Assembly: GCA_000004695.1 (NCBI GenBank)
Contig: CM000151.3
Coordinates: 2,400,001 to 2,464,000, forward strand
Source of the DNA: Dictyostelium discoideum
Taxonomy: Eukaryota
Direction of reading: 5' to 3'
DNA length: 64,000 bases
Below are positions 265-37,553 of the stretch, piece after piece. Numbering within the stretch: position 1 is the first letter of the stretch; every line of letters begins with the position of its first letter. The translations under genes were made by a program, and so were the position numbers. The notes under the pieces were generated by a model, which saw only the letters and a program-made list of their open reading frames with translations, was not told the origin of the DNA and did no database searches.

Positions 265-682
265 ATGATCAGAAAACGAATACTATTATTAATTCTAATA
301 ATAATAGTAATATTACAAATTTTTAGGGTTGAAGGAAATCCAGCAATTCAAATTTATGATGTTTCTAGTGAAGAATACTCATATAATAAATATCCAACAA
401 ATACAAATGACAAATATTGTAATTTTTTTTTCTTAATATTTGTAACCGATACTTCAGATACTGGAGTTCAATTAAAAATAAAAACCAACGATTCAGACGC
501 AACAATTTCAACACCAGCATTTAAAAATATTTCAAGTCAAGTTCTTCCAATTTATGTAAATACTAAATCACCAAATGATTATTCATTATTAATTACGGCA
601 GAATATGATAATGATACATCAATTTATAGTAGTATTATAATTAATTATTCTTGTCAATGTTTGTATTGATTATTTTTTTAAG

Positions 683-741
<59 letters not shown>

Positions 742-3700
742 AAATAAATAATTAATTAAATAATTAAATAAATTAAATAGATATTCCACGAGAATCAATG
801 AAAATAAATTTATATCATACTGGTAAATATAAGCATCCAATTTACCCATTTTCAACAATAATGTACATTACAGGATTAAAATACCCATTGGGTCAATTAC
901 AAGTTGACAAACCGTATAATGTAAAAGTTGATAATATAAGGCCATTTGTCTATCATATTGGTGACGAATTTAATGGATTTATTAAACCAGATTTTAATAT
1001 ATCACTATGGTTCATGGATAGTTCAAATAATACTTATTCATTAAATTATACAATTCCAAGTTTAATTTATTCAAGTAAGTAATTATTGTTATTATTATTA
1101 TTGTTTTTATTATTATTATTATTTTAAAAATTAATATATTAAATTATAATTTTAAAAATTCAGATTCAAATGTAAAAGAAAAGGATATTACATTTAAAAT
1201 TTATCCTAATCAAACAAATGTTATAGAATTTGGATTTATTTGTCCACCAATTTATTCTATTACATTAAATGAAACAATTGGATTAAGCGACCCATTGTTT
1301 ATTAATGAAAATATAGGTTTAAATCCATGGGCATCTTATGAAATGCCAGGAAAAGGTACAACATTCCTTGGTCAAGTTTCTTCCGATTATTCAATTGGTG
1401 CTCAAATTAATGGCACCTTAACTACAATTTATTATCAATTTTTAAAGGTCTCATGTAAGTTTATTATTATTATTATTATTTTTTTTTATTATTGTTTATT
1501 TTTATTATTTTAAAAAATCATTTTTGTTAATAATTTTAATAATATTATTATTATTGTTTTTTAAATATATAGATAATATTGATAGAAAATTTCCATCTTT
1601 TCAAATTGATTATTCACCACCATTACCTTCACTTTCATCAATATTTTCAATTAAATTTAATTCAACTAAAAAATTTGATTTATTCAATTATTCAATTAGA
1701 TGGTTTGAAAGTTTTTCAAATAGTTATAAATGGCCTTTTGGTTTCGAAAGTGGTCATAATTCAAATTATTCATTCAAGTCATCATTTCTACAATCTGAAA
1801 TCTCTGTAAATCCCTACAACTCACTTTATTTCAATCAAGATCATTCTTTAACGCAAATTAGTAATCAACAAGGTAATTGTTTTTTTTTATTTTTTATTAT
1901 TATTTAATAAAATTATTATATTAATTAAAATAATTTTATTATAAATAATAGTTGTGGATATAAATACATTACCAATATTAGAATTAGAATCATTTAATTC
2001 TACTCATTTATATAATCAAGTTTATTTATTTAAGATTAAAATAAAACCAATTTATCAAAGTAAAGGGTACAGTACTTTTATTAAAATTAATGATAATGTT
2101 AATCAAGTATTAAGATATGACTCAATGCCTGATATCGAAAACAATATATATGAAACTGTTTTAAATTTTCATGAAGGTATATTAAATAGTTTAAATATTG
2201 GTGATTCTTATTCAAGACAATCTCAATTTTATAATCCATTTCAATATTATTCAATTGATCCACTTTTAAAACTTGATTTTAAATATTCTGATATGATTTC
2301 AGTTTTAATTGGTAATGTAACTTATTTAATAAATAACATTGATGTAACAAATAAATCAGTTGATAATATAATTTATTTCAATTATAATGGTACTCAAGAA
2401 CCTAAAGATGATACAATTAATTTCTCATTTTTAATTTTATCTCATGAGTTTAAAGTAACTGGAGTCGTAGATTATGATAATATTACAACTTCAATTTGGA
2501 ATTCAACAATTTCAAAATATCAAATTAAATTTACAGTTCCTGCAAATACTAGACCTGGTCCACTTGGTTTTGCTTTACTTTGTGGTTATTCAAGTTCATT
2601 AATAAGTGATTTCTTACCTTTATCTTCTCAATTAATTATTGAATCTAAACATTTCGATGAATATGGACCAATATTTAGTAATATTGAAAAAGTTAATTCA
2701 ACAAATGAATTTGGTTGGAAATTTACAATAGATGATCCAATTAATGGTTTTGATTATGCTGATATTATAGTTAGAGGTGAAATGGATAGTTCAACTTATA
2801 AATTCCATTTAACAACTCAAAATTTAACAAGAGGTGATAAATTTAATGGTGATTATCAAATTAATATAACTTTACCAAGTAAATGTGCATCTCAAAATTA
2901 TATTATCACACAAGTTAAATTATATGATACTCAAGGTTATTTAGGTGAATTTTCAGTATCCAGTGGATTTAATGGTATTAGAAATGTATTTATAAATTAT
3001 TTATCAGATCCAACAATAAATAAAGTATATAAAACATGTAGTGGTGAAAATGATGGTATCGATAGTTCACCACCAATTTTAACTTCATTCATACCAATAT
3101 TAAAACAAAATAGTGATGGTACTCAATACTTATCATTCAACTTTGAAGCAGTAGATATTGAAAGTGGTTTAAAAGATAAACAATATCCAATTGTTTATAT
3201 CCAAACAACAGATTTAAGAACACTTGAATGTGTATCATCTATTATTTCAATAAATGAAACAACTTCAACCTATAAATGCACTATCAATTTACCAAATGGA
3301 TTCGGATACAATTCAGATATTATTTTCAGTGTTTATGGATTCATTAATAATGGCGGTTATTATAGCGGATATTCAAGCGAATCACTAAATAGTTTATCTT
3401 TTATATATTCAATGAGCGATATATCCATAAACAAAGTAATACAAATTAATACCTGTAGCAAATTTGTATCTGGTGATAGCGAGTTATGGATAACAGGTAG
3501 AGGTTTCAATTCAACAAAACAACAAGTATATGTAAAATATTTTGGAGAACCTGGATTTAATCAAATAATAGTACCAAATAAAGTTTATTGGAGTGCAATG
3601 TTTATTAAAAATATTAAACCAACTGATAAACCATTCATTATCAAAGTTTCGGACTATCCACTCACATCAAATGAATTCACTGTTATTCCTATAGTTTATA

Positions 3701-4860
3701 ATTTTACGATTCCCTTAACACCAACAGAAACACCAACAGAAACACCAACAGAAACACCAACAGAGACACCAACACAAACACCAATACCTACATCATCACC
3801 AATACCAACGAATAAACCACAAACATGTTTAGGTGAACCAGTATGTGGTGGATCAAAACAAGGTTTTTGTTCATCAAGTGGATGTATTTGTTATCCACCT
3901 TGGATTGGTAATGATTGTAATTCACAAGTTATAATTATACCACAACCATCAACAAATACATCACAACCATCAACTGAATTACCAATTATAGAAAACAATA
4001 ATCAAACATCAAATAGTACAAATTATTTATTCAAATCATTGATTTCAATTGTATCATTAAGAGAATTAGATTTTAATTCAAATCAAGTTAATTTATATAC
4101 ATTTGATAAATGGATTTATACACCAATTAATAATATTAAAAGTCAATACTTTACAAGTATTCAAAGTGGTGATACAAAATCAACAAATACATTAACAACT
4201 AATATTACTGTAACTTTAGAATGGTTCAATCAAACGACAATCATTCAATTTGCAAATAATAATATAACAATGAATCCATCAAGTATTAAATATACAATTG
4301 AAATTACAGAATATAAATTTTTAAATCAATTAAATAGTCTTCAACTTGTAATGTCAGCATTATTCGAATCATCAAATTCCAAAGATACTTGTTCATTAAA
4401 AGAATTTGGAGATACAAGTGATGGTGATAATTCAAACTTCTTTAAAATTCAAATTGATGACCATTCACTTTATGGTAGATTCATTAAAAGAGCAATCATC
4501 GATTCAAAAGTATCTTCAATTGAAAATCAATTATTAGATTCAAAAATGAACTCAATTCAAACATCATCAGTATCACAATCATTCATTGGTATTACAATAC
4601 CAAATTATAAACAATCAATAATTATTGATCCAGACTTTTCAGTATTAGTAGATAGTAAACCAGTATCAAATAATGATAATAATTCAATTTGTACATCAAA
4701 TAAATCAAAACTAACAAGTGCTCAACTCGCTGGTATTATTATTGGTTCCGTTGCTTTTGCCACTGTAGTTATTGTATCAGTTGTTTACTTGGTCGTGAAA
4801 AACAGAAAATCAGATTTATTCCAAAGAAAAGTACAAAACAAATTACAAAAAATGAACTGA
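265..4860 (+). CDS. Tandem paralog 1 of a large type-I membrane glycoprotein family (signal peptide, NxS/T-rich ectodomain, Thr/Pro linker, EGF-like Cys module, single TM helix, short basic tail); 5 exons, ~1396 aa
   Basis: ORF-track pieces 265-669, 798-1082, 1295-1513, 1524-1907, 1954-4860 join through short AT-rich GT..AG introns. Exons are ~265-658, 781-1074, 1164-1454, 1573-1872, 1952-4860, and every junction is phase 1. Donors are gtttgt/gtaagt/gtaatt; acceptors are atag/cag/tatag. N-term MIRKRILLLILIIIVIL is a signal-like peptide. The C-term is AGIIIGSVAFATVVIVSVVYLVV followed by KNRKS. The Cys module CLGEPVCGGSKQGFCSSSGCICYPPWIGNDC is EGF-like. The junctions fit the same model in copies 2 and 3. 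Confidence 0.6.
3718..3777 (+). repeat. Coding 12-bp tandem repeat (acaccaacagaa x4, then variants) giving PTETPTETPTETPTETPTQTP in the mucin-like linker; copies 2 and 3 have only DPTPTQTP here
   Basis: The unit repeats directly in the sequence. It encodes the TETP x4 segment of ORF 1954-4860. The corresponding linker in ORFs 10638-13313 and 16065-18740 is shorter. Confidence 0.8.
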
Positions 4861-7149: not shown

Positions 7150-7495
7150 AAATCTTAATAGGAGTTGATAATATAATTTATTTCAATTATAATGATACTC
7201 AGGCCACAGTGATCTTCAGCTACATTCTCACTTTTTATTTTAAATAGTAGTAATACAGATATGATCTAATATATATTTCAATAGTTTCAAAAAATCAAAT
7301 TAAATTTACAGTTCTTACAAATACTAGACCTGATCCACTCAGTTTCTTTTTAATTAGTACTTATCAATCTTCAATAACAAATGATATGTTTCCTTTATCA
7401 TCACAACTATTAATTGTTTCTAAACATTTCAATGAATATGGACCAATATTGACTATGGCGGTTATTATAGCGGATATTCAAGCGAATCACTTATA
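7150..7495 (+). pseudogene. Relic fragment of the membrane-glycoprotein family with an internal ~0.7 kb deletion and stops
   Basis: 7150-7440 matches copy-2 exon 5 around 10875-11190 (SVDNIIYFNYN.TQ...KFTVL.NTRP.PLSFFL...DMFPLSSQL..VSKHF.EYGPI). It then jumps directly to ggcggttattatagcggatattcaagcgaatcact (GGYYSGYSSESL), which is copy-2 ~11860. It has no start codon and does contain in-frame stops. Confidence 0.55.
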
Positions 7496-8809: not shown

Positions 8810-11800
8810 ATGATAAAGAAAATTTTATTAATAATCCTAACATTGGTGATAATAAATAGCTTTTCAACAATAAATAATTTAATAATTGGGGTTGAAGGAC
8901 AGTTTCAATTGTATGATATTACAAATCAAGAAGAAGGTGCTTATAATAGATACCCAGATTCAACAAATCAAAAAATTTGTTCATATGTTTTTTCGATTGC
9001 AATAGTTGATTACTCGAATAGTGGGGCAACTTTGAATGTTTTCACCAATGATACAGATGCAATGGTCTATCAAATCATTAGGAAAGAATATGGAGGAATT
9101 GCCACAGTTATAGTTAAAAATAAAACACCAAATACTTATACATTATTAATAAATGCAACATTGCAAAATGGTCAAAATATTTATAAGAATATCTCAATAA
9201 CTTATTCTTGTGAATGTTTGTATATAAAATTTAAAATTAAAAAAACAAAAATAAATAATTAATTAATTTCAATACCAATTTTATATAGATATCCCTCGAG
9301 AATTGATGAAGGTCAATGTTTTAACAAGTAACAATTATAAATTTACAATTAATCCTTATACAACATTAATACACTTTACAGGTTTAAAATATCAAATATC
9401 TTATCTAAATGTTTCAAGTCCTTCTTGGATAAACATAAATAATTTTTATTCAAATTTATTATATGTTAGTGTAGATTTTAATAAATATAATTTTGTACCA
9501 GAGTCTAATATATCAATACTTTTCTTGGATAGTTCAGATCAACAATATACTGTGAATATTACAATTCCTTTTTTTTATTTTTCAAGTAAGTATAATAATT
9601 AAATTTAAAAAAAAAAAAATAAGATATTAAAATTATTATTATTATAAGAAATGAATGTAGAAGAAAAGGATATTACATTCAAGATCTATCCAAACCAAAC
9701 CGATGTTACAGTACTTGGAGTTAATTGTTCACCAGTTTACTCTATTACATTAAATGAAACCATTGAATATGATCCATTATTTATTGAAGATGTTTCACGT
9801 CGTATGCCTACTCCATCATATGAAATACCAGGAAAAGGTACAACATTCATTGGTTATGTTTATACACAATATTCTATTTTCGCACAAATTAATAACTCAT
9901 TAACAACAATTTATAGTAACCCAAATTTAAATGTTTCAAGTAAGTTTTTTAAAATTAAATTCAATTACTTTTTAATATATACATATATCAAAGATTAATT
10001 TCTATTGACATTATTTAAAAAAAAATGAATAGAAAACTTTAATTTTACATTTCCAAATGTCATTGTTGAACCAGTATCATTACCTTTAATATTAAACTCA
10101 ACAATGTTTTCATTTGGGTTCACTTCAAGTTTTCAGTATGCAATTTTTCCATTTTATTTTAGATGGAATTTAGGTTTTCAATATATCTTTAGTTGGCCAT
10201 TTGGGTTTGAAAGTGGTCAAAATTCAAACTATTCTTTAAAAGTATCATTTTTAAAACCCACGTATTCGCCAAACAATTTTGGTTTATTGACCTTTAATAA
10301 TGAAAATTTTATTATTCAAATAGACAATAGTAAGTATATATACATATAATCATTAATATTCTAATATACATATATAATCATTAATATTCTAAACTACTAC
10401 TGAATAACACACACACACACCCCACACACAAACAAGTACTAACATTAAAAAATATTTTTAAAAATAGCGATAAATTCATCATTACTACCATTAGAATTAG
10501 AATCATGTAAAGTTATATACCTTTTTGAACAATTTCATTTATTAATAATTAAAATAAAACCAACATATAAAGAGATTGGTTATAATCTTTTCATTCAAAT
10601 TAATGATGATGCAAATGCAATATATAGACAAGAATCATTGGTAGATGCTGAAAATAATATATATGAAATTGTTTATGATTTTAAAGGGCGTGGATTTTCA
10701 GTTTTATCTATTGGAGATTCAACTTTTAAAAAGAGTCAAGTTTATTATGTAAATAGTTATTTTTCAATTAATCCATTTTCAGTTATAGATTATAAAGCTC
10801 CAACAATATTACCTGTTTTAATAGAAAATATTACATTTTTAAAAAATTATATTGATGTGGCAAATAAATCAGTTGATAATATAATTTATTTCAATTATAA
10901 TGGTACTCAAGCCCATAGTGATCCTTCAGCTTCATTCTCACTTTTTATTTTAAATAGTAATACCACAGAATCTAATATAGTTTTCGATAGTTTAAAGTTT
11001 GCAACTTGGAATTCAACAATTTCAAAATATCAAATTAAATTTACAGTTCTTGCAAACACTAGACCTGGTCCACTCAGTTTCTTTTTAATGTGTGGTTATC
11101 AATCTTCAATAACAAATGATATGTTTCCTTTATCATCACAACTATTTATTGTTTCTAAACATTTCGATGCGTATGGACCAATATTTAGTAATATTGAAAA
11201 AATTAATTCACCAAATGAATTTGGTTGGAAATTTACAATAGATGATCCAATTAATGGTTTTGATTATGGTGATATTATAGTGAGAGGTGAAATGGATAGT
11301 TCAACTTATAAATTCCATTTAACAACTCAAAATTTAACAAGAGGTGATAAATTTAATGGTGATTATCAAATTAATATAACTTTACCAAGTAAATGTGCAT
11401 CTCAAAATTATATTATCACACAAGTTAAATTATATGATACTCAAGGCTTTTCAGGTGAATTTTATGTAGTTGGTGAAATGGATGGTATTAAAAATGTATT
11501 TATAAATTATTTATCAGATCCAACAATAAATAAAGTATATAAAACATGTAGTGGTGAAAATGATGGTATCGATAGTTCACCACCAATTTTAACTTCATTC
11601 ATACCAATATTAAAACAAAATAGTGATGGTACTCAATACTTATCATTCAACTTTGAAGCAGTAGATATTGAAAGTGGTTTAAAAGATAAACAATATCCAG
11701 TTGTTTATATTGAAACAATAGAAGTACAAACACTTGAATGTGTATCATCTATTATTTCAATAAACGAAACAGCTGCAACCTATACATGTACTATCGATTT

Positions 11801-13313
11801 ACCAATAGGATTTGGATACAATTCAGATATTATTTTCAGTGTTTATGGATTCATTAATAATGGCGGTTATTATAGCGGATATTCAAGCGAATCACTAAAT
11901 AATTTATCTTTTATATATACAATTAATAATATAACTTTTAATAAAGTAATACAAATCACAAAATGCAGTAAATTTAATTCATTTGATAGCGAGTTATGGA
12001 TAACAGGTAGATGTTTCAATTCAACGCAACAAGTATATGTAAAATATGAAGGAGACTCAAGCTTTAATCAAATAGTACCAACTACAGTTTATTGGAGTGC
12101 AATTTTTATTAAAAATATTAAACCAACCGATAAACCATTCATTATCAAAGTTTCAGACCTACCACTCACATCAAATGAATTCACTGTCAATCCAATAGTT
12201 TATAATTTTATAGATCCAACACCAACACAAACACCAATACCTACATCATCACCAATGCCAACGAATAAACCACAAACATGTTTAGGTGAACCAGTATGTG
12301 GTGGATCAAAACAAGGTTTTTGTTCATCAAGTGGATGTATTTGTTATCCACCTTGGATTGGTAATGATTGTAATTCACAAGTTATAATTATACCACAACC
12401 ATCAACAAATACATCACAACCATCAACTGAATTACCAATTATCGATAACAATAATCAAACATCAAATAGTACAAATTATTTATTCAAATCATTGATTTCA
12501 ATTGTATCATTAAGAGAATTAGATTTTAATTCAAATCAAGTTAATTTATATACATTTGATAAATGGATTTATACACCAATTAATAATATTAAAAGTCAAT
12601 ACTTTACAAGTATTCAAAGTGGTGATACAAAATCAACAAATACATTAACAACCAATATTACTGTAACTTTAGAATGGTTCAATCAAACGACAATTATTCA
12701 ATTCGCAAATAATAATATAACAATGAATCCATCAAGTATTAAATATACAATTGAAATTACAGAATATAAATTTTTAAAACAATTAAATAGTCTTCAACTT
12801 GTAATGTCAGCATTATTCGAATCATCAACTTCCAAAGATACTTGTTCATTAAAAGTATTTGGAGATACAAGCGATGGTGATAATTCAAACTTCTTTAAAA
12901 TTCAAATTGATGATCATTCACTTTATGGTAGATTCATTAAAAGAGCAATCATCGATTCAAAAGTGTCTTCAATTGAAAATCAATTATTAGATTCAAAAAT
13001 GAACTCAATTCAAACATCATCAGTATCACAATCATTCATTGGTATTACAATACCAAACTATAAACAATCAATAATTATTGATCCAGACTTTTCAGTATTA
13101 GTAGATAGTAAACCAGTATCAAATAATGATAATAATTCAATTTGTACATCAAATAAATCAAAACTAACAAGTGCTCAACTCGCTGGTATTATTATTGGTT
13201 CTATTGCTTTTGCCACTGTAGTTATTGTATCAGTTGTTTACTTGGTTGTGAAAAACAGAAAATCAAAAAAATTCCAAAGAAAAGTACAAAAGAAATTACA
13301 AACAATTAACTGA
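8810..13313 (+). CDS. Tandem paralog 2 of the type-I membrane glycoprotein family; 5 exons, ~1378 aa
   Basis: Exons ~8810-9215, 9289-9585, 9649-9939, 10033-10329, 10468-13313, all phase-1 junctions (gtttgt/gtaagt donors, atag/taag/aatag acceptors). Exon lengths are 406, 297, 291, 297 and 2846 nt, giving an unbroken frame. ORF track: 8810-9262, 9303-9602, 9651-9998, 10104-10349, 10638-13313. Signal MIKKILLIILTLVIINS. TM AGIIIGSIAFATVVIVSVVYLVV. Confidence 0.65.
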
Positions 13314-14214: not shown

Positions 14215-14635
14215 ATGATAAAGAAAATTTTATTGATAATCCTAACATTGGCGATAATAAATAGCTTTTCAACAATAAATAATTTAATAATTGGGGTTGA
14301 AGGACAGTTTCAATTGTATGATATTACAAATCAAGAAGAAGGTGCTTATAATAGATACCCAGATTCAACAAATCAAAAAATTTGTTCATATGTTTTTTCG
14401 ATTGCAATAGTTGATTACTCGAATAGTGGAACAAATTTGATGGTTTTCACCAATGACACAGATGCAACAGTCTCTCTAATCAATAAGAAAGAATATGGAG
14501 GAATTGCCACAGTTATAGTTAAAAATAAAACACCAAATACTTATACATTATTAATAAATGCAACATTGCAAAATGATCAAATTATTTATAAAAATATCTC
14601 AATAACTTATTCTTGTGAATGTTTGTATATAAAAC

Positions 14636-14680
<45 letters not shown>

Positions 14681-15037
14681 AAAAAAAAAAAAAAAATAAT
14701 TAACTTTAATATCAATTTTATAGATATCCCTCGAGAATTGATGAAGGTCAATGTTTTAACAAGTAACAATTATAAATTTACACTTTTTCCTTATACAGCA
14801 ACAATACACTTTGCAGGTTTAAAATATCCACTAAATTTGCTAAATGTTTCAAGTCCTTCAAATGTTGCAATGAGCTTAGAGGGATATTCAAATTTATTCT
14901 TTGTTGGTGTAGGATTTGATAAAAATAATTTAATATCAGAGTTTAATATATCAATAAGATTCTTGGATAGTTCAGATCAACAATATACTGTAAATATTAC
15001 AATTCCTTTTTTATATTTTTCAAGTAAGTATAATAAT

Positions 15038-15068
<31 letters not shown>

Positions 15069-18000
15069 GATATTAAAATTATTATTATTTTAAGAAATGA
15101 ATGTAGAAGAAAAGGATATTACATTTAAGATCTACCCAAACCAAACTGATGTTAAAGAATTTGGAATTAATTGTTCACCAGTTTACTCTATTACATTAAA
15201 TGAAACCATTGAATATGATCCATTATTTATTGAAGATATTACAAATAATATTCCAACTCCATCATATGAAATACCAGGAAAAGGTACAACATTCATTGGC
15301 CAAGTTCATACACAATATTCTATTTTCGCAAAAATTAATAACTCATTAACAACAATTTATAGTGATCCAAATTTAAATGTTTTTAGTAAGTTTGTTAAAA
15401 TTAAATTTAATTACTTTTTAATATATACATATATCAAAGATTAATTTCTATTGACATTATTTTAATTTTTTTTTTTAAAAAAATGAATAGATAATTTTAA
15501 TTTTACATTTCCAAATGTCATTGTTGAACCAATATCAGTACCTTTAACATTAAACTCAACAATGTTTTCATTTGGATTCAATTCAAATACCCAGTATGAA
15601 ACATTTTCATTTTATTTTAGATGGAATTTAGGTTTTCAATATATCTTTAGTTGGCCATTTGGGTTTGAAAGTGGTCAAAATTCAAACTATTCTTTAAAAG
15701 CATCATTTTTAAAACCCACATATTCGCCAAACAATTTTGGTTTATTGACCTTTAATAATCGAAATTTAAATATTCAAATAGACAATAGTAAGTATATACA
15801 CATATAAAATCATTAATATTCTAAACTACTACCGAACAACACACACACACTCAAAACAATTACTAACATTAAAAAATATTTTTAAATATAGCAATAAATT
15901 CATCATTACTACCATTAGAATTAGAATCATGTAAAGTTATATACCTTTTTGAACAATTTCATTTATTAAGAATTAAAATAAAACCAACATATAAAGAGAT
16001 TGGTTATAATCTTTTCATTCAAATTAATGATGATGATGCAAATGGAATATATAGACAAGAATCATTGGTAGATGCTGAAAATAATATATATGAAATTGTT
16101 TATGATTTTAAAGGGCGTGGTTTTCAATTTTTATCTATTGGAGATTCAACTTTTAAAAAGAGTCAAGTTTATTATTTAAATAGTTATTTTTCAATTAATC
16201 CATTTTCAGTTATAGATTATAAAGCTCCAACAATATTACCTGTTTTAATAGAAAATATTACATTTTTAAAAAATTATATTGATGTGGCAAATAAATCAGT
16301 TGATAATATAATTTATTTCAATTATAATGGTACTCAAACCCATAGTAATCCTTCAGCTTCATTCTCACTTTTTATTTTAAATAGTAATACCACAGATTCT
16401 AATATAGATTTCAATAGTTTAAAGTTTGCAACTTGGAATTCAACAATTTCAAAATATCAAATTAAATTTACAGTTCTTGCAAACACTAGACCTGGTCCAC
16501 TCAGTTTCTTTTTATGGTGTGGTTTTCGAGCAATAACAAATGATATGTTTCCTTTATCATCACAACTAATAGTTGTTTCTAAACATTTCGATGAATATGG
16601 ACCAATATTTAGTAATATTGAAAAGGTTAATTCAACAAATGAATTTGGTTGGAAATTTACAATAGATGATCCAATTAATGGTTTTGATTATGGTGATATT
16701 ATAGTGAGAGGTGAAATGGATAGTTCAACTTATAAATTCCATTTAACAACTCAAAATTTAACAAGAGGTGATAAATTTAATGGTGATTATCAAATTAATA
16801 TAACTTTACCAAGTAAATGCGCATCTCAAAATTATATTATCACACAAGTTAAATTATATGATACTCAAGGTTATTCAGGTGAATTTTCAGTAGTTAATGG
16901 AATAGATGGTATTAAAAATGTATTTATAAATTATTTATCAGATCCAACAATAAATAAAGTATATAAAACATGTAGTGGTGAAAATGATGGTATCGATAGT
17001 TCACCACCAATTTTAACTTCATTCATACCAATATTAAGACAAAATAGTGATGGTACTCAATATTTATTATTCAACTTTGAAGCAGTAGATATTGAAAGTG
17101 GTTTAAAAGATAAACAATATCCAATTGTTTACATTCAAACAATAGAAGCACAAACACTTGAATGTGTATCATCTATTATTTCAATAAACGAAACAGCTGC
17201 AACCTATACATGTACCATCAATTTACCAATAGGATTTGGATACAATTCAGATATTATTTTCAGTGTTTATGGATTCATTAATAATGGCGGTTATTATAGC
17301 GGATATTCAAGCGAATCACTAAATAATTTATCTTTTATATATACAATTAATAATATAGCTTTTAATAAAGTAATACAAATCACAAAATGCAGTAAATTTA
17401 ATTCATTTGATAGCGAGTTATGGATAACAGGTAGATGTTTCAATTCAACGCAACAAGTATATGTAAAATATGAAGGAGACTCAAGCTTTAATCAAATAAT
17501 AGTACCAACTACAGTTTATTGGAGTGCAATGTTTATTAAAAATATTAAACCAACTGATAAACCATTCATTATCAAAGTTTCAGACCTACCACTCACATCA
17601 AATGAATTCACTGTCAATCCAATAGTTTATAATTTTATAGATCCAACACCAACACAAACACCAATACCTACATCATCACCAATACCAACGAATAAACCAC
17701 AAACATGTTTAGGTGAACCAGTATGTGGTGGATCAAAACAAGGTTTTTGTTCGCCAAGTGGATGTATTTGTTATCCACCTTGGATTGGTAATGATTGTAA
17801 TTCACAAGTTATAATTATACCACAACCATCAACAAATACATCACAGCCATCAACTGAATTACCAATTATCGATAACAATAATCAAACATCAAATAGTACA
17901 AATTATTTATTCAAATCATTGATTTCAATTGTATCATTAAGAGAATTAGATTTTAATTCGAATCAAGTTAATTTATATACATTTGATAAATGGATTTATA

Positions 18001-18740
18001 CACCAATTAATAATATTAAAAGTCAATACTTTACAAGTATCCAAAGTGGTGATACAAAATCAACAAATCCATTAATAACTAATATTACTGTAACTTTAGA
18101 ATGGTTCAATCAAACAAAAATCATTCAATTCGCAAATAATAATATAACAATGAATCCATCAAGTATTAAATATACAATTGAAATTACAGAATATAAATTT
18201 TTAAATCAATTAAATAGTCTTCAACTTGTAATGTCAGCATTATTCGAATCATCAACTTCCAAAGATACTTGTTCATTAAAAGAATTTGGAGATACAAGCG
18301 ATGGTGATAATTCAAACTTCTTTAAAATTCAAATTGATGACCATTCACTTTATGGTAGATTCATTAAAAGAGCAATCATCGATTCAAAAGTATCTTCAAT
18401 TGAAAATCAATTATTAGATTCAAAAATGAACTCAGTTCAAACATCATCAGTATCACAATCATTCATTGGTATTACAATACCAAACTATAAACAATCAATA
18501 ATTATTGATCCAGACTTTTCAGTATTAGTAGATAGTAAACCAGTATCAAATAATGATAATAATTCAATTTGTACATCAAATAAATCAAAACTAACAAGTG
18601 CTCAACTCGCTGGTATTATTATTGGTTCCGTTGCTTTTGCCACTGTAGTTATTGTATCAGTTGTTTACTTGGTTGTGAAAAACAAAAAATCGGTTTTGTT
18701 CCAAAGAAAAGTACAAAACAAATTACAAAAAATGAACTGA
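14215..18740 (+). CDS. Tandem paralog 3 of the type-I membrane glycoprotein family; 5 exons, ~1379 aa; near-identical to paralog 2
   Basis: Exons ~14215-14620, 14724-15023, 15095-15385, 15491-15787, 15892-18740, all phase 1. The real ATG is at 14215 (MIKKILLIILTLAIINS); ORF 14125 begins upstream in poly-K/F. ORF track: 14738-15040, 15097-15444, 15562-15807, 16065-18740. Confidence 0.65.
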
Positions 18741-18893: not shown

Positions 18894-19090
18894 TATAAGA
18901 TGAAAAAAATTAAAATAAAATTAAAATAAAAAGAAATAAATAGGACAACAAAAACAATTTTCTAACTATGGCTTGGGTATATACTAATATTTGGTAATTA
19001 AAATTTATTTTTATTTTTATAAACATTTTCTAAGGAATTAATAGATAGTATCATCATATTTAATTAAAATTTGAATTATTATTTTCAAAT

Positions 19091-19482
19091 TTAATTAAAA
19101 TATGGTAAATCTCTATTGAGTGGTCTAGATGGCATTATTCTAATGTCCATTACATTTTCTGAATCATCATCAATTTTCTGAGTTATACACCTTGATTGAA
19201 CAAGTTCATAATCTTCTCCATTGCATTCAACTTTTCCACTATTGATTTCAAAATTTTCATTACTCCAAAGTTTACCATCTGTTTTATATTGAATAAAACG
19301 AATAAAAAGAGGTGGTGGAAAGATCATTGGAGTTGGTAATGTGATTGCTAAAAATTATTTTTAAATGTTGGATTGAAATAAATATTTAAATAAACAAAAT
19401 TGGATATATTATTTCAATTTATTATAAATAATTTACCTTTTCCACTTATTGTTGATTCTCCATCATTATTTTTAATTATCAT
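19091..19482 (-). CDS. Small two-exon ORF (~100 aa) of unknown function; candidate gene only
   Basis: Exon 1 ~19482-19437 (MIIKNNDGESTISGK, ends ggaaaag|gtaaat). Exon 2 ~19347-19091 after tttttag; it is ORF 19091-19327 extended upstream (AITLPTPMIFPPPLFIRFIQYKTDGKLW...PYFN*). A degenerate second copy lies at ~19690-19900 on the - strand (MPTDIK...; IPPQFWFRVIDYKLEGQTWV). Confidence 0.3.
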
Positions 19483-20796: not shown

Positions 20797-23296
20797 ATGA
20801 ATAAAAATTTTGTTTTGTATTTATTTTATTTTATTTTTTTAAATTATTGTAATAGTCAATCATTGAACATAACAGATATTTCAGAAGCAAATTCGTATAT
20901 AGTATATCCTGATTCATCAAATTCACAAACTTGTTCTTTTAATTTTAAATTTTTTATCCAAACTGTTAATATAATAAATTATTCTGGAAGTTCATTTTCA
21001 TTTTTATTATCTAAATCTTTTGTTTTGGATACATCATCATTTATAACTAAAGATGGTCATGCATATGCATCTTTTAATGGTTTAAATTTGCCATTAGGAA
21101 ATGATAGTCTAATATTAACATCAACTTATGAAAATTCAGATGGTATTAAAATTCAACAAAATTATTCAATATCTTATAAATGTGAATGTTTGTATTTGCC
21201 CCATTAAATTAATTAATTTAATATTTTAAAAAATTATTTAAATTGCTAATTTTTTTTTTTAAAAGTAATTGAATTTAATTCTTTGGGTTATAAGGTTTTA
21301 TTAACAAATAATTTTAAAAAATCTAAATCAGGAATGAATGGAATTATTCAATTTACAGGATTAAAAAATAAACTAAAATCATTAAGTTCGAGTGGGGGAA
21401 TTTTCAATGTCAAACCAACATTTCCAAATAGTTTTTCATTTTCTGATTATCAATTTCAAAATTTAACAAAAGAAAATATAATTTCACTTTTATTTAATAA
21501 TGGTAATAATATTACAGTAAAATTTCCATCATCATTTAGTTCATGTAGGTATTTTTTTTTTATTTTTTTTTGAACTTGCACTTTTCATTTTTTTTTTTTA
21601 TTTTTTTATTTTTTTTTATTTAAAAATTTCAAAAAATAATTAATCCTCGTTTAATTTTATTATTTTTTAGATTATAATGTTGATGAAAGCAATTCAAAAG
21701 TTGTAATTTATCCAAGTGAAAGCACAAATATAATTGAATATGGATATGACAATTCTCCACTTTATTCAGTTACAATAAATAAAACCAGTGTTGATTATGA
21801 ACCTTATATTCAAGTTAATAATGGGTTTAGCAACTATTCTCAAATAACACCAATATATCAAAATGACAAAACTGTAACATATTTAGGTCAACTTATTAAT
21901 TCAGCACCTTCAAAATTATCAATTTATTCAGAGTTTAATAATTCTTTAATAAAAATCTATGAAACACCAATTTTAAATATTACAAGTAAGTATTTTAAAA
22001 TATATCTTTATAAATGAATTTTAATAGTAATGATAATAATTTTTATTATTATAATTTTATTTAGAATTTAGTAAAGAACCTTTTGTTCCAAATCCATTTA
22101 TTGTTACATACTTTAATAGTGATGGTATTTTTTTATTAAATTCATCAATGTTTACAATTACCACATCAAATCAATTTAATTTCTTAACAACAACCTATTC
22201 ATTTGGTTTATTCACAAAAGATTTTCAATGGCCATTTGGTTTTGGAAGTGGTAATAATTTTAATTATAATGTATCCGCTTCATTTTTGAGATACAAGGCT
22301 CTCATTAGTTCACCAAAAGTTTTTACTGTTGATAAAACAAATCTAATCAACATTAATTCAAATATAAGTATGTATATAATTTATTATAAATAAATTTAAA
22401 ATAATAATTAATAATAATAATATTTAAATTTTTTAATATTAATATATATTTTTATTATATTATTATTATTATTATCATTAAAACATAAACTGTTTTTTTT
22501 TTAAAAAAAAAAAAAAAATTATAGTTGCACCAACTGTAAATGCACCAATTCTTTTAAAATTTGAATGGGTTCATTTATTTTCAGGAAATTATTTATTAAA
22601 ATTTAGGGTAAAAGATAATGGATATGAAGCATTTGTTGGTATTGGTGATGTCAATACAATTGCATTAAGATATGAATCAATGATAGATAGTGAAAGTATA
22701 GGTGATGAAATTGTATTTGCAGCAGTTATAGATACATACAGATATCCAATTGACAAATTTATTGTATTCGATAGATTGGGACAAACAGAAACATATTCAA
22801 TCGGTCAATATTATTCAGTTAATCCACTTTTAAAAATTGATTCATTTTATGAAAATAATAATAAAAATAATAATAATAATAATAACTTATTACTTATTAA
22901 TAATATTACATTTTTTAATAATTTTATCGATATAATAAATAAATCAGTTGATAATGTAGTTTATTTTACATATAATGGAGGTAGAATGGATAATGATGAA
23001 AAACCAATTGGATTTATGTTAATGGACGTAGTTACATTAGTAAAGAATAGTAAATACCATTTCAACAGTTCAACACTATACTTTTCAACTTGGAATTCAA
23101 CAATATCAATGTATCAAATTAAATTTAAAATACCTGCAAATACCCAACCTGGTCATATTCCATATAGATTCTTTATCAACTCTTATTCAACACCTTTAGA
23201 TAGTGAATTCTTACCATCATCTGCACAACTATATGTAACATTATCAAGTAAGTATCTATAATATAGGTATAAATACAATTTATCAATAGTTTTCAA

Positions 23297-23378
<82 letters not shown>

Positions 23379-25625
23379 GAATCTACAGATTTCGATGGAT
23401 ATGGACCAATATTTAGTAATATTGAAAAGGTTAATTCAACAAATGAATTTGGTTGGAAATTTACAATAGATGATCCAATTAATGGTTTTGATTATGCTGA
23501 TATTATAGTTAGAGGTGAAATGGATAGTTCAACTTATAAATTCCATTTAACAACTCAAAATTTAACAAGAGGTGATAAATTTAATGGTGATTATCAAATT
23601 AATATAACTTTACCAAGTAAATGTGCATCTCAAAATTATATTATCACACAAGTTAAATTATATGATACTCAAGGTATTGGTTGCTACTTTTCAGTATCTG
23701 AATCATTTGTAGGTGGTGGTGTTAATAACCCATTTATAAATTATTTATTAGACTCAACAATAAATAAATTATATAAAAAGTGTAGTGGTGAAAATGATGG
23801 TATCGATAGTTCACCACCAATTTTAACATTATTTACACCACAAGTAGCTATTCCTGCAGATGGACATATGGAAGTATATTTCTCATTTGAAGCAACTGAT
23901 TACGAAAGTGGATTAAAAGATCTTCAATATCCAATGGTTTACGTTGAAGCAATTGAATTTCAAATATTTGAATGTGAAACAATTATTAAATCAAAGAATA
24001 TCACCTCTGCAACCTATCAATGTTACGTTTACTTACCAAGAGGTGTATTGTACACTTCAGAAATTACATTCAGTGTTTATGGATTAATTAATAATGGTGG
24101 TTGTTATGGTGGTTATTCAAGCGACTCACTAAGAATTCTATTCCCGTATAAGTTTTCAATGAAAGCAGTATCATCAGGACTTGCTAAAAGGTTAGATATC
24201 TATAGAGTTTCTCAAATTACAACAAGTGGTGGCGAATTATGGATAATAGGTGCTGGTTTCTTTTCTTCAAATCTTGTAGTATTAATTAAATATTATGGTG
24301 AATCAACATTTACACAAACATCAATACCAACTATAAGTTATCCAAATGCAATGTTAATCAATGATGTCAAACCAACTGATAAACCATTCATTATCAAAGT
24401 ACAAGAAGCTTTCTTTTCAAATGAATTCACTGTTTATCCATTAGTATTTGATATTCGTTTTGTACCACCAATTCCAACAGAATTACCAACAGAATCCCCA
24501 ACACCAAATCCATCATCATCATCTTCTTCAATAGACTCGTCATCGTCAACACCTACATCATCACCAATACCAACGAATAAACCTCAAACATGTTTAGGTG
24601 AACCATTATGTGGTGGATCAAAACAAGGATATTGTTCATCAAGTGGATGTGTTTGTTATCCACCTTGGATTGGTAATGATTGTAATTCACAAGTTATAAT
24701 TATACCACAACCATCAACAAATACATCACAACCATCAACTGAATTACCAATTATCGATAACAATAATCAAACATCAAATAGTACAAATTATTTATTCAAA
24801 TCATTGATTTCAATTGTATCATTAAGAGAATTAGATTTTAATTCAAATTAAGTTAATTTATATACATTTGATAAATGGATTTATACACCAATTAATAATA
24901 TTAAAAGTCAATACTTTACAAGTATTCAAAGTGGTGATACAAAATCAACAAATACATTAACAACCAATATTACTGTAACTTTAGAATGGTTCAATCAAAC
25001 AACAATCATTCAATTTGCAAATAATAATATAACAATGAATCCATCAAGTATTAAATATACAATTGAAATTACAGAATATAAATTTTTAAATCAATTAAAT
25101 AGTCTTCAACTTGTAATGTCAGCATTATTCGAATCATCAACTTCCAAAGATACTTGTTCATTAAAAGTATTTGGAGATACAAGCGATGGTGATAATTCAA
25201 ACTTCTTTAAAATTCAAATTGATGATCATTCACTTTATGGTAGATTCATTAAAAGAGCAATCATCGATTCAAAAGTATCTTCAATTGAAAATCAATTATT
25301 AGATTCAAAAATGAACTCAATTCAAACATCATCAATATCACAATCATTCATTGGTATTACAATACCAAATTATAAACAATCAATAATTATTGATCCAGAC
25401 TTTTCAGTATTAGTAGATAGTAAACCAGTATCAAATAATGATAATAATTCAATTTGTACATCAAATAAATCAAAACTAACAAGTTCTCAACTCGCTGGTA
25501 TTATTATTGGTTCCGTTGCTTTTGCTGCTGTCGTTGTTGTTGCAGCTTCTTATTTTATTATAAAAAAGTGGAAAGACGATAAATTTGTAAAAACATTTAA
25601 TAGAAAATTAAAAAAACTATCATAA
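20797..25625 (+). pseudogene. Divergent paralog 4 of the membrane glycoprotein family; 6 exons, including an extra intron absent from copies 1-3; the open frame is interrupted by a single in-frame TAA at 24849-24851 upstream of the TM helix
   Basis: Exons ~20797-21187, 21266-21544, 21671-21985, 22065-22367, 22525-23247, 23389-25625. The junctions are phase 1 and the lengths fit a continuous frame. ORF track: 20797-21207, 21283-21573, 22148-22393, 22680-23261, 23520-24851, 25035-25625, with the last two in the same frame. aattcaaatTaagtt aligns to aattcaaatCaagtt (Q, NSNQVNLYTF) in copies 1-3. The tail is AGIIIGSVAFAAVVVVAASYFIIKKWKDDKF... Confidence 0.55.
23248..23388 (+). other. Paralog-specific intron (gtaagt...(att)n...tctacag) inside what is continuous exon 5 in copies 1-3
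   Basis: Copy 4 reads ...QLYVTLS | NFDGYGPIFSNIEKVNSTNEF. Copies 1-3 read ...QLIIESKHFDEYGPIFSNIEKVNSTNEF without a break. The donor is ttatcaa|gtaagt and the acceptor is tctacag|atttcgat. The intron contains an (ATT)~29 microsatellite at 23293-23378. Confidence 0.6.
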
Positions 25626-26554
25626 TTAACAAATAAAAAATACTGTGTATTAATTTTTTAAAAGTTTATTCCTTTTTAAAAGGAGTAGTTTAAATAAAGA
25701 TTTTTAAATAATTAATTTTTTCTATGGAATTATTTAAATAAAATTTTTAAAAAAAATATATTTAACTAGTGGATTTTATTTATTTTTAAATTGTTTTAAT
25801 TGTCTTAGAGTTTTTTTGAATTACTTTTTTTAAAAAATAAGAAAGAAACTGATACAATAACAACACAACAGATAATTCATTTGAAAAGAATTTTGAATTT
25901 TCTTGTACTTTGATAATGAATGGTTTTTCAGTTGGTTTGACATCATTAATTAACATTGTATTTGGATAAATTATAGTAGGTATTGATGTTTGTGTAAAGG
26001 TTGATTCACCATGATATTTAATTAAGACTACAAGATTATTTCATTTAATTTTTTTGTATCTACTCTATGCAAAATAGTATTTAAAAAAAAGAATTGATGT
26101 TAAGTTGGTGGTAAATTAAAATTTCTTTGTATGCTGGAAATTGAGATTCTCTAACTTTTTAATTTGAAATTATAATTGGTATAATAATAAAACTTGGGAA
26201 ACTTAATTTTAATTATCTATATGTTGAATGAATACTTTAACATCAGCCTCACTTAAATACTTCCCAGAGGTGGTAAATTTGGTGTTGATTGCAATTAATT
26301 ATTAAAAAAAATTTTTTTTTTTTTTTTTTAAAAAATATTTACTAACATAATCCACTTTTCAATTTCATAAACCAATTTCATTTTTTTAAATCTGACAACA
26401 CTGTTTAAAACTTTTTGATTGCCAAACTCTTTTTCTATATGGTTACCAAAAATCAAAGTGAGTGGTCCATGATTTTTTTAACATTATGGGTACAGTTTAT
26501 TTTGAGCATTAAAATAACAGCAGTAATGTACTCGAATTTGAAACCAATTAATTT

Positions 26555-29440: not shown

Positions 29441-29906
29441 AATGAAACCTAAAAGAATGAATGCTCATTTTCTTCTAGAGGTATTATATTTTATTATTTT
29501 AGATTGAATATAAATATTTGTACTAATTTTTTTTTTTTTTTTTTTTTTTTTTTTCTCTAATTAAAAACAAAAAACTGTTCATTGGATTTTATCGCCAAAA
29601 CCTAAACTTCTGGTCTGAAAAAAAAAAAAATCAATACCAAAAGGTGAAAAAAGAAAAAATAATAAAAAAAAAAAAAATAATAAAAAAAAAAAACAAATAA
29701 AAAAAAAAAATAAAAAAAAAAAGTGTTTGATTTGAAAAATTTAAAAAAAAATATTAAAAAGTGTTTGGTTTGGCCAATCCGCACAATAAAAAAAAAAAAG
29801 GGGGGAAATTTAAATAGAGTTTTTTTAATTTTCTATTAAACATTTTAACAAATTTATCATCTTTCCACTTTCTTATAAAAAAAGTAACTACAATTTATTA
29901 AGCTGA

Positions 29907-34759
<4,853 letters not shown>

Positions 34760-34948: not shown

Positions 34949-35525
34949 TTGAAATGAATTAAATTAATTGTCAGATATTTATTTTTTTTTTTTTTTGTGC
35001 AGTCAACTAAAAATAAAAAAAAGATATTTTTAAAAAATCATGATTGTTGAAATTGGTGGTTTTATTTGGATTTTCATTTTTTTTTTTAAAAATAAAATAT
35101 AATACTATTATTATTTTATTGTAAAACATTATTTAAATTCTATTATATGTTTAGTGATGTGGAGGAAAATGAAATGAAAATGAAATTTTAAAAAAAAAAA
35201 AAAAATAATTAATATTTTCATTTTTGAAAATAATTTTATTACTATGGCATTTTGAAAAGAAGATGATATCATTTATAAATTAAAAACTAGAAATTAAAAA
35301 ACTTAAAAAAATAAAATTAAAAAAGGTTAATGAAATATATATTTTTCATTATTGTTTAAAAAATCAATTTAATTAATATAAAAAAATTAAAAAAAATATA
35401 TTTAATACTGGTATATTTGTTTTTTAGATATTTATTTTGAAATTAGATTTTTTTTTTTTTTTTTTTTGATTTTTTTTTAATTTTTTTTTTTTTTTATTAT
35501 TTTTTAATGTTTCAATAAAGTGAAA

Positions 35526-37553
35526 ATGGTTTCAAATAATGATGATTTATTTTTTAAAATTTTTAGAAATCAATATATTAATAGAGAAATATTTAATAAA
35601 GTTAAAGAATATAATAAGAAATTAAAATATATCAGATATAATTATTATGATTTACCTTTAGAATTAATAATAAAAAAAAAAAATCAACAATTATTTGTAG
35701 AAAAATTAAAAGATTTTTTAAAACTTAAAAATGAAATAAAAGAGAATGGATTCACCAAAGAAAATCAATCAAATGTACATAAATATTTTATTAGATTTGA
35801 TGAAGGGCAAATATTACTTTTATTAGGATGGAAAGAATTGGATTTAGAATCATTTGATCTTTATTTAAGAATATTTGAAAATGAAATTAAAAATCGGAAT
35901 GAAATAACATTATATATTAACCCCAGTGGTTTTGAAATATGTGATGATAAATTCATACACTTTTTAGAAAAAAAAACATTTAGAAAATTAATTAAATTTG
36001 ATAATATCGTTGCCTTTGTATATAGAGGGGTTCATTCAATAAGATTATTAAATTATTTTATTGATAATTGTAAAGATTTAAATAGTGATGCTTTAAAAGA
36101 TTTAAATAATCTATATACTATATTTTCATTGTATTATTCAAATGGGAAAAATGAAGATTTAAAATACGAATATCTAAAGAGAATAAAAAGGTCAAATCAA
36201 TATTTTTCACGTTTAAATTCCTTTACAAGATTTATTGAAGATGCAATAAGAAATGAAGATTTAAAAATGTTAAAATCGCTACTTTCTCTTTTTAAATATG
36301 ATAAAAAACAAACCAATCCAACAGATCACCATCCAGATGATATAGTTACAATATTGGATATTCAAATTTCAATTAAAATATTAGAGCAATTAAAAATTAG
36401 TATTAATTCATTTAGAGGAAATGATAAATTATTACCATTTTATAAAATTTTAATAGAACGAGTATACTCTTCAAATAACTATTTCAAAAAAGAACAAAAA
36501 AAGAGACTTACAATAGCCTCAATAGAGTTTAGAAATTATGCAATTGACAAGATGTTAAATAATGGCTTCTATGCCAGTGATGAAAGAATGTTTGAAAATA
36601 TTTCATTCGCTTCAAATTGTATAAATGATGATGATCCAAACAATCTTTCAGAATATGATAAATTATTATTAAAACCAGAGTTTTTATCAGTACTTTTTTA
36701 TAAATGTAAAATAATGAATAGAGATTTAAATTTATTCAAATTATATCTGGTTAAATTTGGATTCAACTTTGAAAAATTATTAACTATAATAGAATTAAAT
36801 TATGAAAACATGGTATCTTATGTAATTTCAAACCTTTCTGAAATTGTTTTAAATCGATATTTAGATTTAATTGATTTTTCATTACCATCAAATGAAAGTG
36901 AAGGTTATGATTTTGTTTTTAATTTAGTTTTACCATTGTTAACTTTTGAAGAAACATTATCACTACACGAAAAAATTCAAAGCATCAAATTACCTTTCAA
37001 CTCTGAAAGAAGAAGAAAATTCATTTTAAAATCATATGAAATTGAATCAAAAATTGATGAAATTAATAGAAATAAAATCAATCAAAGATTTTTAAAAAAT
37101 TTTCTTAATAGAAAAGAAATTTTAATTGAAATTTGTAATAGCAAAACACTAACTGATTTAATATTTTGTAATTTAAAATCAGAGAATTTTAAAACAATTA
37201 AAAAAATTAAAAAACTTTGTTTTATCATTGATAAAACTTTATTAGCTAAATTTATTTGTTCAATTTATTGTGATTATTCAAAATCACTTTTATACTTAAT
37301 TCACATTCTAGATATTAATAATATTAATGATAATGATAATAATAATAATATAACAATTCCACAATCCATCTCCTCAAAATTTTCAAGTTTCGAAATGGCA
37401 ATGGGCCAAAGTATGCAGTATTTTTTATTAAATTTAAAATCAAGCTATGATGAAGAAAAAGATGGCCAGATGGTAACTGTAGACATTCAACCCCCAACAA
37501 AAAGTAATAATTATAATTTTATCAAAAAAGCACTATCATTTTTAAAAAAGTAA
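35526..37553 (+). CDS. Intronless hypothetical protein (~675 aa), Asn/Lys/Leu-rich, with no recognisable domain
   Basis: ORF 35520-37553, first ATG at 35526 (MVSNNDDLFFKIFRNQYINREIF...). The 2-kb frame is uninterrupted and codon usage is typical of AT-rich coding sequence. Confidence 0.5.
   Translation: MVSNNDDLFFKIFRNQYINREIFNKVKEYNKKLKYIRYNYYDLPLELIIKKKNQQLFVEKLKDFLKLKNEIKENGFTKENQSNVHKYFIRFDEGQILLLLGWKELDLESFDLYLRIFENEIKNRNEITLYINPSGFEICDDKFIHFLEKKTFRKLIKFDNIVAFVYRGVHSIRLLNYFIDNCKDLNSDALKDLNNLYTIFSLYYSNGKNEDLKYEYLKRIKRSNQYFSRLNSFTRFIEDAIRNEDLKMLKSLLSLFKYDKKQTNPTDHHPDDIVTILDIQISIKILEQLKISINSFRGNDKLLPFYKILIERVYSSNNYFKKEQKKRLTIASIEFRNYAIDKMLNNGFYASDERMFENISFASNCINDDDPNNLSEYDKLLLKPEFLSVLFYKCKIMNRDLNLFKLYLVKFGFNFEKLLTIIELNYENMVSYVISNLSEIVLNRYLDLIDFSLPSNESEGYDFVFNLVLPLLTFEETLSLHEKIQSIKLPFNSERRRKFILKSYEIESKIDEINRNKINQRFLKNFLNRKEILIEICNSKTLTDLIFCNLKSENFKTIKKIKKLCFIIDKTLLAKFICSIYCDYSKSLLYLIHILDINNINDNDNNNNITIPQSISSKFSSFEMAMGQSMQYFLLNLKSSYDEEKDGQMVTVDIQPPTKSNNYNFIKKALSFLKK

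Follow-up and report, generated by a model that had tools for sequence, protein, structure and literature searches.

A premature stop codon in one of five tandem ComC-like genes of Dictyostelium discoideum: a probable nascent pseudogene or truncation allele behind an annotated intron

One of five closely related neighbouring genes of Dictyostelium discoideum carries an in-frame TAA at a position where its sister copies read CAA, and public protein models nevertheless run through the site. Is this stop codon a flaw of the reference sequence, a triplet that is removed from the transcript by splicing, the designed end of a secreted protein, or the first lesion of a gene that is being lost? We addressed the question in a stretch of 64,000 nucleotides (assembly GCA_000004695.1, contig CM000151.3, positions 2,400,001 to 2,464,000), hereafter the window; unless another contig is named, all coordinates are given on it.

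The window has a GC content of 21.9% and uses the standard genetic code. Reading TGA as Trp (table 4) was tried and rejected, since it made the ORFs barely longer and the sequence is eukaryotic. Five paralogous genes, arranged in tandem, encode ComC-like type I membrane proteins of ~1,400 aa, and about 70 homologs of ~1,380–1,420 aa were found in D. discoideum, D. citrinum, D. firmibasis, D. dimigraforme, D. purpureum and Polysphondylium. Pfam searches together with exact threading revealed the following order of elements in copy 4: signal peptide MNKNFVLYLFYFIFLNYCNS, DUF7035, DUF7034, the EGF-like DUF7949, ComC_SSD, a transmembrane (TM) helix and a short tail. The Pfam search of positions 23394–24848 returned E-values of 4e-36 for DUF7035 and 5e-21 for DUF7034, and the EGF-like module was matched with E = 1.6e-15. 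By this domain content copy 4 is assigned to the ComC-like family, although ComC_SSD and the TM helix do not lie in one uninterrupted ORF: their coding sequence is complete but split by the TAA. The gene comC itself is listed among dictyostelid proteins as ‘Has EGF domains’, with a signal peptide and a TM segment, and is restricted to group 4 dictyostelids (PMC4931340, Table 3). With copy 4 threading exactly onto its AX4 protein and copies 3 and 5 identical to theirs, the window is placed on chromosome 2 of D. discoideum AX4. The positions of the five genes and of the elements of copy 4 are collected in Table 1.

Table 1. Coordinates of the five paralogs and of features of copy 4 in the window.
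Feature	Position	Strand	Remarks
Copy 1 paralog	265..4860 (approximate)	+	0 stops in any exon HSP, appears intact; CAA at 4084-4086
Copy 2 paralog	8810..13313 (5′ boundary approximate)	+	CAA at 12537-12539; 1,378-aa gene annotated in GCA_054883475.1 contig L002
Copy 3 paralog	14215..18740	+	Identical to AX4 XP_644341.1; CAA; 24 codons retained in model
Copy 4 gene	20797..25625	+	Threads 100% onto XP_645075.2 / EAL71159.2 / UniProt Q558J3
Copy 5 paralog	29907..34759	-	Identical to AX4 XP_644336.1; CAA; 24 codons retained in model
Intron 5 of copy 4, genuine	23248..23388	+	GTAAGT...CAG, 141 nt, 9% GC, (ATT)n tract
Translated part of last real exon, 5′ of stop	23389..24848	+	Pfam and threading
DUF7035	23394-23786	+	Pfam
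DUF7034, then Ser/Pro/Thr linker	23820-24158 (DUF7034)	+	Pfam
EGF-like DUF7949	24591-24695	+	Pfam; first ~40 ComC_SSD profile positions also precede the stop
Gene-conversion tract	24654..25484	+	C>T at 24849 is the only difference of copy 4 from the four-paralog consensus
Annotated sixth ‘intron’	24781..24852	+	72 nt, in-frame, GTACAAAT...AAATTAAG; codons for STNYLFKSLISIVSLRELDFNSN*V removed
Premature TAA (CAA>TAA, Q1158*)	24849..24851	+	Same TAA at L002:14053 of GCA_054883475.1
Stranded intact 3′ coding remainder	24852..25625	+	ComC_SSD profile positions 46-222, TM, tail, stop
TM helix LAGIIIGSVAFAAVVVVAASYFII	25491-25562	+	
Basic tail, then normal TAA (25623-25625)	25563-25622	+	Copy-4-specific tail peptide KKWKDDKFVKTFNRKLKKLS

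The alignment of the five copies around the stop is unambiguous: a 26-mer spanning the site occurs five times in the window, once per copy, against zero occurrences expected by chance. Position 24849 is T in copy 4 and C in the other four copies, two of which also carry a synonymous A>G change 4 bases upstream of the site. The TAA shares its frame with the CDS that precedes it and with the 257 codons and normal TAA stop that follow it, the frame staying open for 774 nt past the premature stop and through the TM helix. The unspliced CDS of copy 4 comprises 1,415 codons, with the TAA at codon 1158. Another in-frame stop, at 23259–23261, was considered as a second lesion and rejected: it is harmless inside the genuine intron 5 (common to copies 4 and 5 and absent from copies 1–3), and copy 4 thus has one coding lesion only. 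These results bear out the original prediction of a lone nonsense substitution followed by about 770 bp of intact frame that includes the TM helix. Its estimate of a ~1150-aa product without an anchor is likewise close to the 1,157 aa obtained when the annotated 72-nt splice discussed below is not applied. Readthrough or recoding of the stop was set aside on general grounds, as a TAA with G after it terminates efficiently and selenocysteine is encoded by TGA.

The simplest way to dismiss the stop would be to ascribe the T at 24849 to an error of the reference, for example to a read misplaced within a five-fold repeat that is 97–100% identical. The block is indeed highly repetitive, and a single-base difference is the smallest error possible. 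The locus was compared in another assembly. Contig L002 of GCA_054883475.1 matches window positions 10781–35625 (24.8 kb) with 99.9% identity; the 23 differing columns are all intergenic and mostly concern homopolymer length. At the site it likewise reads T in copy 4, and its TAA is flanked by copy-4-specific sequence. In addition, the models of both twins of this gene in the AX4 duplication need the same bypass of the stop. With the TAA present in an independently produced assembly as well, a base-calling error is effectively ruled out, the T is real, and we give an error of the reference hardly any probability. The strain behind GCA_054883475.1 may belong to the same laboratory lineage as AX4.

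Comparison with more distant genomes points to the direction of the change. The ortholog of copy 4 in the divergent isolate ACTFIW (L005, 16511–21246) is a continuous ORF with CAA at the site and with conservation of the 24 codons that the annotated intron removes from copy 4, and in the closest gene of D. citrinum the codon at this position is GAA. Since the ortholog reads CAA and the D. citrinum gene GAA, TAA is, on this comparison, the derived state, specific to the AX4-type strain lineage. The between-strain comparison at 24849 is made with ACTFIW; both contigs of a further isolate, ACTFIR, end inside inverted conserved 3′ blocks. The isolates available for comparison are strongly diverged overall and so bound the age of the mutation only loosely. 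A single-copy gene flanking the cluster shows 96.6% nucleotide identity between AX4 and ACTFIR. This gene being itself 3.4% diverged, we rejected the idea that the cluster displays a hyper-polymorphism of the tgr type. One Logan fragment containing cluster sequence was found, and it is genomic, because it reads into an intron of copy 5.

Further evidence on timing comes from exchange among the copies themselves. The C-terminal block of the family (the ~320 codons that precede the TM helix) undergoes concerted evolution. In this block copy 4 is 97.5–100% identical to the paralogs of its own genome versus 92–97.5% to its ortholog, a relation that is inverted in the variable central part of the exon (58–78% to paralogs versus 92–99% to the ortholog). 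A tract of about 830 nt within the block has been homogenised by gene conversion, and throughout it the C>T change is the sole private feature of copy 4. The mutation is therefore judged to be younger than the most recent conversion event to have homogenised the five copies over their 3′ ~0.9 kb. Variants that mark copy 4 lie at 24606 (T), 24630–24632 (TAT) and 24651 (G), and in the tail at 25518–25622. Over the conserved block as a whole, copy 4 has 6 private changes, compared with 3–7 in the intact copies; only one of its private substitutions lies 3′ of the stop (A>S at 25485). We saw no secondary lesions or relaxed constraint in the conserved block of copy 4, and it contains 0 frameshifts. 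Such unrelaxed constraint 3′ of the stop is compatible with a very young lesion or with gene conversion that still continues, and also with a region that is still translated. The original prediction had left two options for the stop, a very recent origin or a sequencing error: the first of these gains support from the conversion tract, and the second is contradicted by the independent assembly.

Existing annotation proposes that the stop is bypassed. Three models, Q558J3, its twin Q556L9 from the chromosome-2 duplication, and KAM9952106.1 from a newer assembly, skip the identical 24 codons as an intron. The span ends one base past the TAA, so that the AG of its acceptor overlaps the last A of the stop codon. 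The AX4 protein accordingly reads ...NNNQTSN-I-NLYTF..., versus ...NNNQTSNSTNYLFKSLISIVSLRELDFNSN*VNLYTF... encoded by the genome; the peptide of the spliced form is QTSNINLYTFDK. If the annotation were right, the span would be a genuine or newly arisen exitron-like intron, and copy 4 would yield an anchored protein of 1,391 aa lacking 24 residues.

To evaluate this reading, we compared the span with real introns of the family. Splice-site weight matrices were built on the 14 real introns of copies 3–5 and applied with leave-one-out; 552 exonic GT and 500 exonic AG dinucleotides served as decoys. In its termini and length the annotated intron is acceptable. It has GT and AG termini, is a multiple of three, and at 72 nt falls within the family range of 71–179 nt, just above the shortest real intron. 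Its GC content of 18% is low against an exon mean of 28%, though exon windows reach 17% at their 5th percentile, while 13 of the 14 real introns have 4–13% GC and the remaining one 22%. The splice signals depart from those of real introns. Real donors fit GT[A/T][A/T/G][G/T][T/C] (n = 14), whereas the putative donor GTACAAAT has C, A and A at +4 to +6, each of them seen in 0 of 14 real introns at its position. Its score of –4.28 bits is below that of every real donor (minimum –0.7, median 9.7) and equals the decoy median, 53% of GT decoys scoring equal or better. The acceptor reaches 0.06 bits versus a real median of 6.2, and 40% of AG decoys do as well or better.

Conservation of the span speaks against its removal. 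The same GT and AG are present in each of the four paralogs, whose models nonetheless keep the 24 codons unspliced, and the ACTFIW ortholog, which has no stop, is read straight through. Four residues within the ‘intron’ (S79, S82, R87 and E88, counted on the copy-1 fragment) are invariant in the 30 homologs aligned, the most distant of which share 39% identity with the query. Structure prediction with AlphaFold2 (mean pLDDT 73.5) assigns the 24 codons to the first two beta-strands of the ComC_SSD sandwich (E75-78 and E82-89, local pLDDT about 88–91), and the stop sits at the start of the third. Splicing would thus damage the domain: the ComC_SSD match of the spliced model starts only at profile position 32 and scores 46 bits, as against positions 9–222 and 61.5 bits for an intact paralog, a cost of profile positions 9–31 and 15 bits.

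The choice of this particular span is also not distinctive. Nineteen different GT..AG spans would carry the frame across the stop, and what singles out the annotated one is only that no other is shorter. Its use by three annotated models counts in its favour at first sight. Protein evidence is, however, often transferred between annotations, and for this reason the three models are probably not independent. Taken together, these points make it most likely that gene prediction introduced the annotated 72-nt intron to prevent the ORF from closing, and we regard a genuine intron at this place as unlikely.

One property of the mutation deserves separate consideration. The –4 position of the acceptor is C in 0 of the 14 real acceptors, and the C>T change puts a T there, with which the acceptor scores 0.06 instead of –4.3 bits, a gain of about 4.4 bits. 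The substitution could thus both create the stop and improve a dormant acceptor, with some copy-4 transcripts losing the 72 nt in an exitron-like rescue. This scenario is highly improbable in our estimate; if true, one allele would give rise to a truncated secreted ectodomain and, in parallel, to an anchored form whose supersandwich lacks 24 residues.

We conclude that copy 4 is most likely a nascent pseudogene or a truncation allele generated by a real C>T transition, and that the annotated intron is probably an artefact. The transition converts Gln-1158 (CAA) to TAA in the final true exon, ~2 beta-strands into ComC_SSD, so that translation should end after 1,157 residues. The truncated chain, ending in ...LRELDFNSN, would still contain the signal peptide, DUF7035, DUF7034 and the EGF-like module, but about 190 residues of the beta-sandwich would be missing, together with the TM helix and the cytoplasmic tail. 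Such a chain might be secreted or removed by quality control. The membrane-anchored function of copy 4 would be lost, a loss presumably buffered by the four intact paralogs. Given the exchange among copies, a later gene conversion from a neighbouring copy could repair the stop, or the stop could spread to the intact paralogs.

The same 1,157-aa protein could in principle be functional, that is, a secreted ectodomain maintained by selection, for example as a decoy or a diffusible ligand of a ComC-like adhesion/signalling family. In its favour, copy 4 retains an undamaged signal peptide and every N-terminal domain as far as the EGF-like module, its gene structure 5′ of the stop is perfect, and exon-junction-dependent NMD would not be expected to apply to a stop that is placed, as here, in the final real exon of our exon model. 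A designed soluble ectodomain is nonetheless argued against by the position of the TAA, which in the AlphaFold2 model cuts ComC_SSD after ~2 of roughly 20 strands, inside the beta-sandwich and not at a domain boundary. Moreover, the allele was seen only in AX4-type sequence, with the divergent isolate and the sister species intact, and the downstream codons for the TM helix and tail are still perfect, as would be the case for a lesion too young for selection to have acted. We consider selection for a soluble product very unlikely, and the loss of an intact copy 4 by a young nonsense mutation remains the preferred explanation.

This reading has consequences for public databases. Q558J3 and Q556L9, whose sequences are without 24 conserved residues because an intron was apparently invented to hide the stop, probably stand for a protein that cells never produce, and the newer annotation KAM9952106.1 carries the same model. 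That these three are probably incorrect models is all that is new here, both the allele and its masking being of known kinds; the stop in copy 4 opens no new biological question. A literature search on the copy accessions, the new assemblies and comC together with lagC yielded nothing usable. The locus also illustrates, cleanly and on a small scale, how a nonsense mutation can arise within a tract under active homogenisation by gene conversion.

Several known systems offer points of comparison. With the ComC-like ‘EGF-like domain-containing’ proteins, copy 4 shares the full domain order, the signal peptide and the coding sequence of a C-terminal TM helix; it differs in that its frame is cut at codon 1158 within ComC_SSD, and its likeness to comC consists in a shared Pfam domain. 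Among solved structures, the best match of the modelled SSD and TM region is GLMP (PDB 6nyq_C and 8r8q_B, E = 1.2e-5), which also has a beta-sandwich ectodomain followed by a single C-terminal TM helix. With a TM-score of about 0.40–0.44 and 8–11% identity, this match is weak and amounts to a resemblance of fold, and we claim no membership for the copy. The annotated intron resembles known gene-prediction artefacts, in which a short intron is invented over an in-frame stop: here, too, the shortest GT..AG span is used, its signals are at decoy level, and its content is conserved coding sequence. It departs from them in that the mutation slightly improves the acceptor, and it is judged an artefact here from sequence and modelling. 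Copy 4 also invites comparison with young pseudogenes of duplicated genes and with nonsense alleles segregating in tandem families under gene conversion. It differs in that public databases mask its lesion behind a protein-coding model, and the lesion is known here from the DNA itself. In common with them, copy 4 has a single disabling substitution alongside intact paralogs and an intact ortholog; as in young pseudogenes of tandem families, it shows no secondary decay, and its 3′ block is homogenised within the genome.

The five ComC-like paralogs (copies 1–5) are not uniformly similar along their length. Two islands of 96–100% nucleotide identity, mapped on copy 4 and present at the homologous parts, run through all five copies and enclose a variable core that is only 58–78% identical. 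Together, the islands and the core form a concerted-evolution mosaic, in which the DUF7034/linker region is thereby free to diverge. Gene structure is also uneven. Copies 4 and 5 have in common an intron that carries a long microsatellite, (ATT)n/(AAT)n, while copies 1–3 lack it at the homologous position; thus, intron presence varies between tandem paralogs.

Coordinates of features in and around the ComC-like cluster (window positions)
Feature	Position	Strand	Remark
Copy 1	265–4860	+	
Copy 1 supersandwich and TM region	3802–4857		model m1992c7199e4a
Isolated fragment	7164–7454	+	between copies 1 and 2; similar to family residues 563–669
Small Dicty_CAD (calcium-dependent cell adhesion) family gene	~19084–19475	−	between copies 3 and 4; transferred from the annotation of L002, a near-identical independent assembly
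Microsatellite intron, copy 4	23248–23388		
First identity island	23400–23637		
Copy 4 exon segment matching the inverted repeat	24270–24434		
Second identity island	24567–25517		
Copy 4 TM and cytoplasmic tail	25518–25622		last ~35 codons
Copy-4-type tail coding sequence	25553–25618		
Inverted repeat	25867–26037		171 nt; ~240 bp beyond the copy 4 stop codon
Tail-like match	29818–29883	−	just 3′ of the copy 5 stop
Microsatellite intron, copy 5	32126–32304		
Flanking single-copy coding gene	35520–37553		

At the 3′-end of copy 4, the TM helix and cytoplasmic tail have diverged not only from each of the four paralogs but also from the ortholog in the isolate ACTFIW (L005; about 68% nucleotide identity), in contrast to the adjoining block, which is 92–100% identical. 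Copy 4 terminates with TAA, the other four copies with TGA. Beyond its stop codon lies an inverted sequence 89.5% identical to a segment of its own exon, a relic left here, at the end of the gene, by an inverted duplication or by rearrangement. A second relic, derived from copy-4-type tail coding sequence (91% identity), is found in the 3′-flank of copy 5; its presence there suggests that the current copy 5 tail was put in place by conversion or replacement, the earlier tail having stayed behind.

Copy 1 appears intact, and ACTFIW_011806 is 95% identical to it. Among the search matches there was no AX4 protein at least 90% identical to copy 1 (best AX4 match, 81%); the corresponding protein may be unannotated, modelled differently, or overlooked in the search. 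The isolated fragment downstream of copy 1 shares 56% amino acid identity with the family protein P0010 and is probably a degraded family relic. Genes similar to the Dicty_CAD neighbour are also found alongside the cluster elsewhere, in other strains as well as in other species (L001, L003, L004, L005).

In Dictyostelium cf. discoideum (GCA_054859205.1, L001 8932–11271), a family member is annotated in two fragments of 395 and 371 aa and entirely lacks the EGF, supersandwich and TM parts. Therefore, truncated or decayed cluster copies occur in other lineages too. The flanking single-copy gene differs from AX4 by about 3.4% in isolates labelled D. discoideum (ACTFIR and ACTFIW; L006 3409–5442). 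Such coding divergence is high for variation within D. discoideum, and these isolates may represent cryptic lineages.

Among solved structures, the best match to the modelled supersandwich and TM region of copy 1 is 6nyq_C (E = 1.2e-5, TM-score about 0.4), the luminal domain of the lysosomal glycoprotein GLMP, which is a type I membrane protein. The resemblance points to a possible distant relationship in fold between the ComC supersandwich plus TM region and this GLMP domain.
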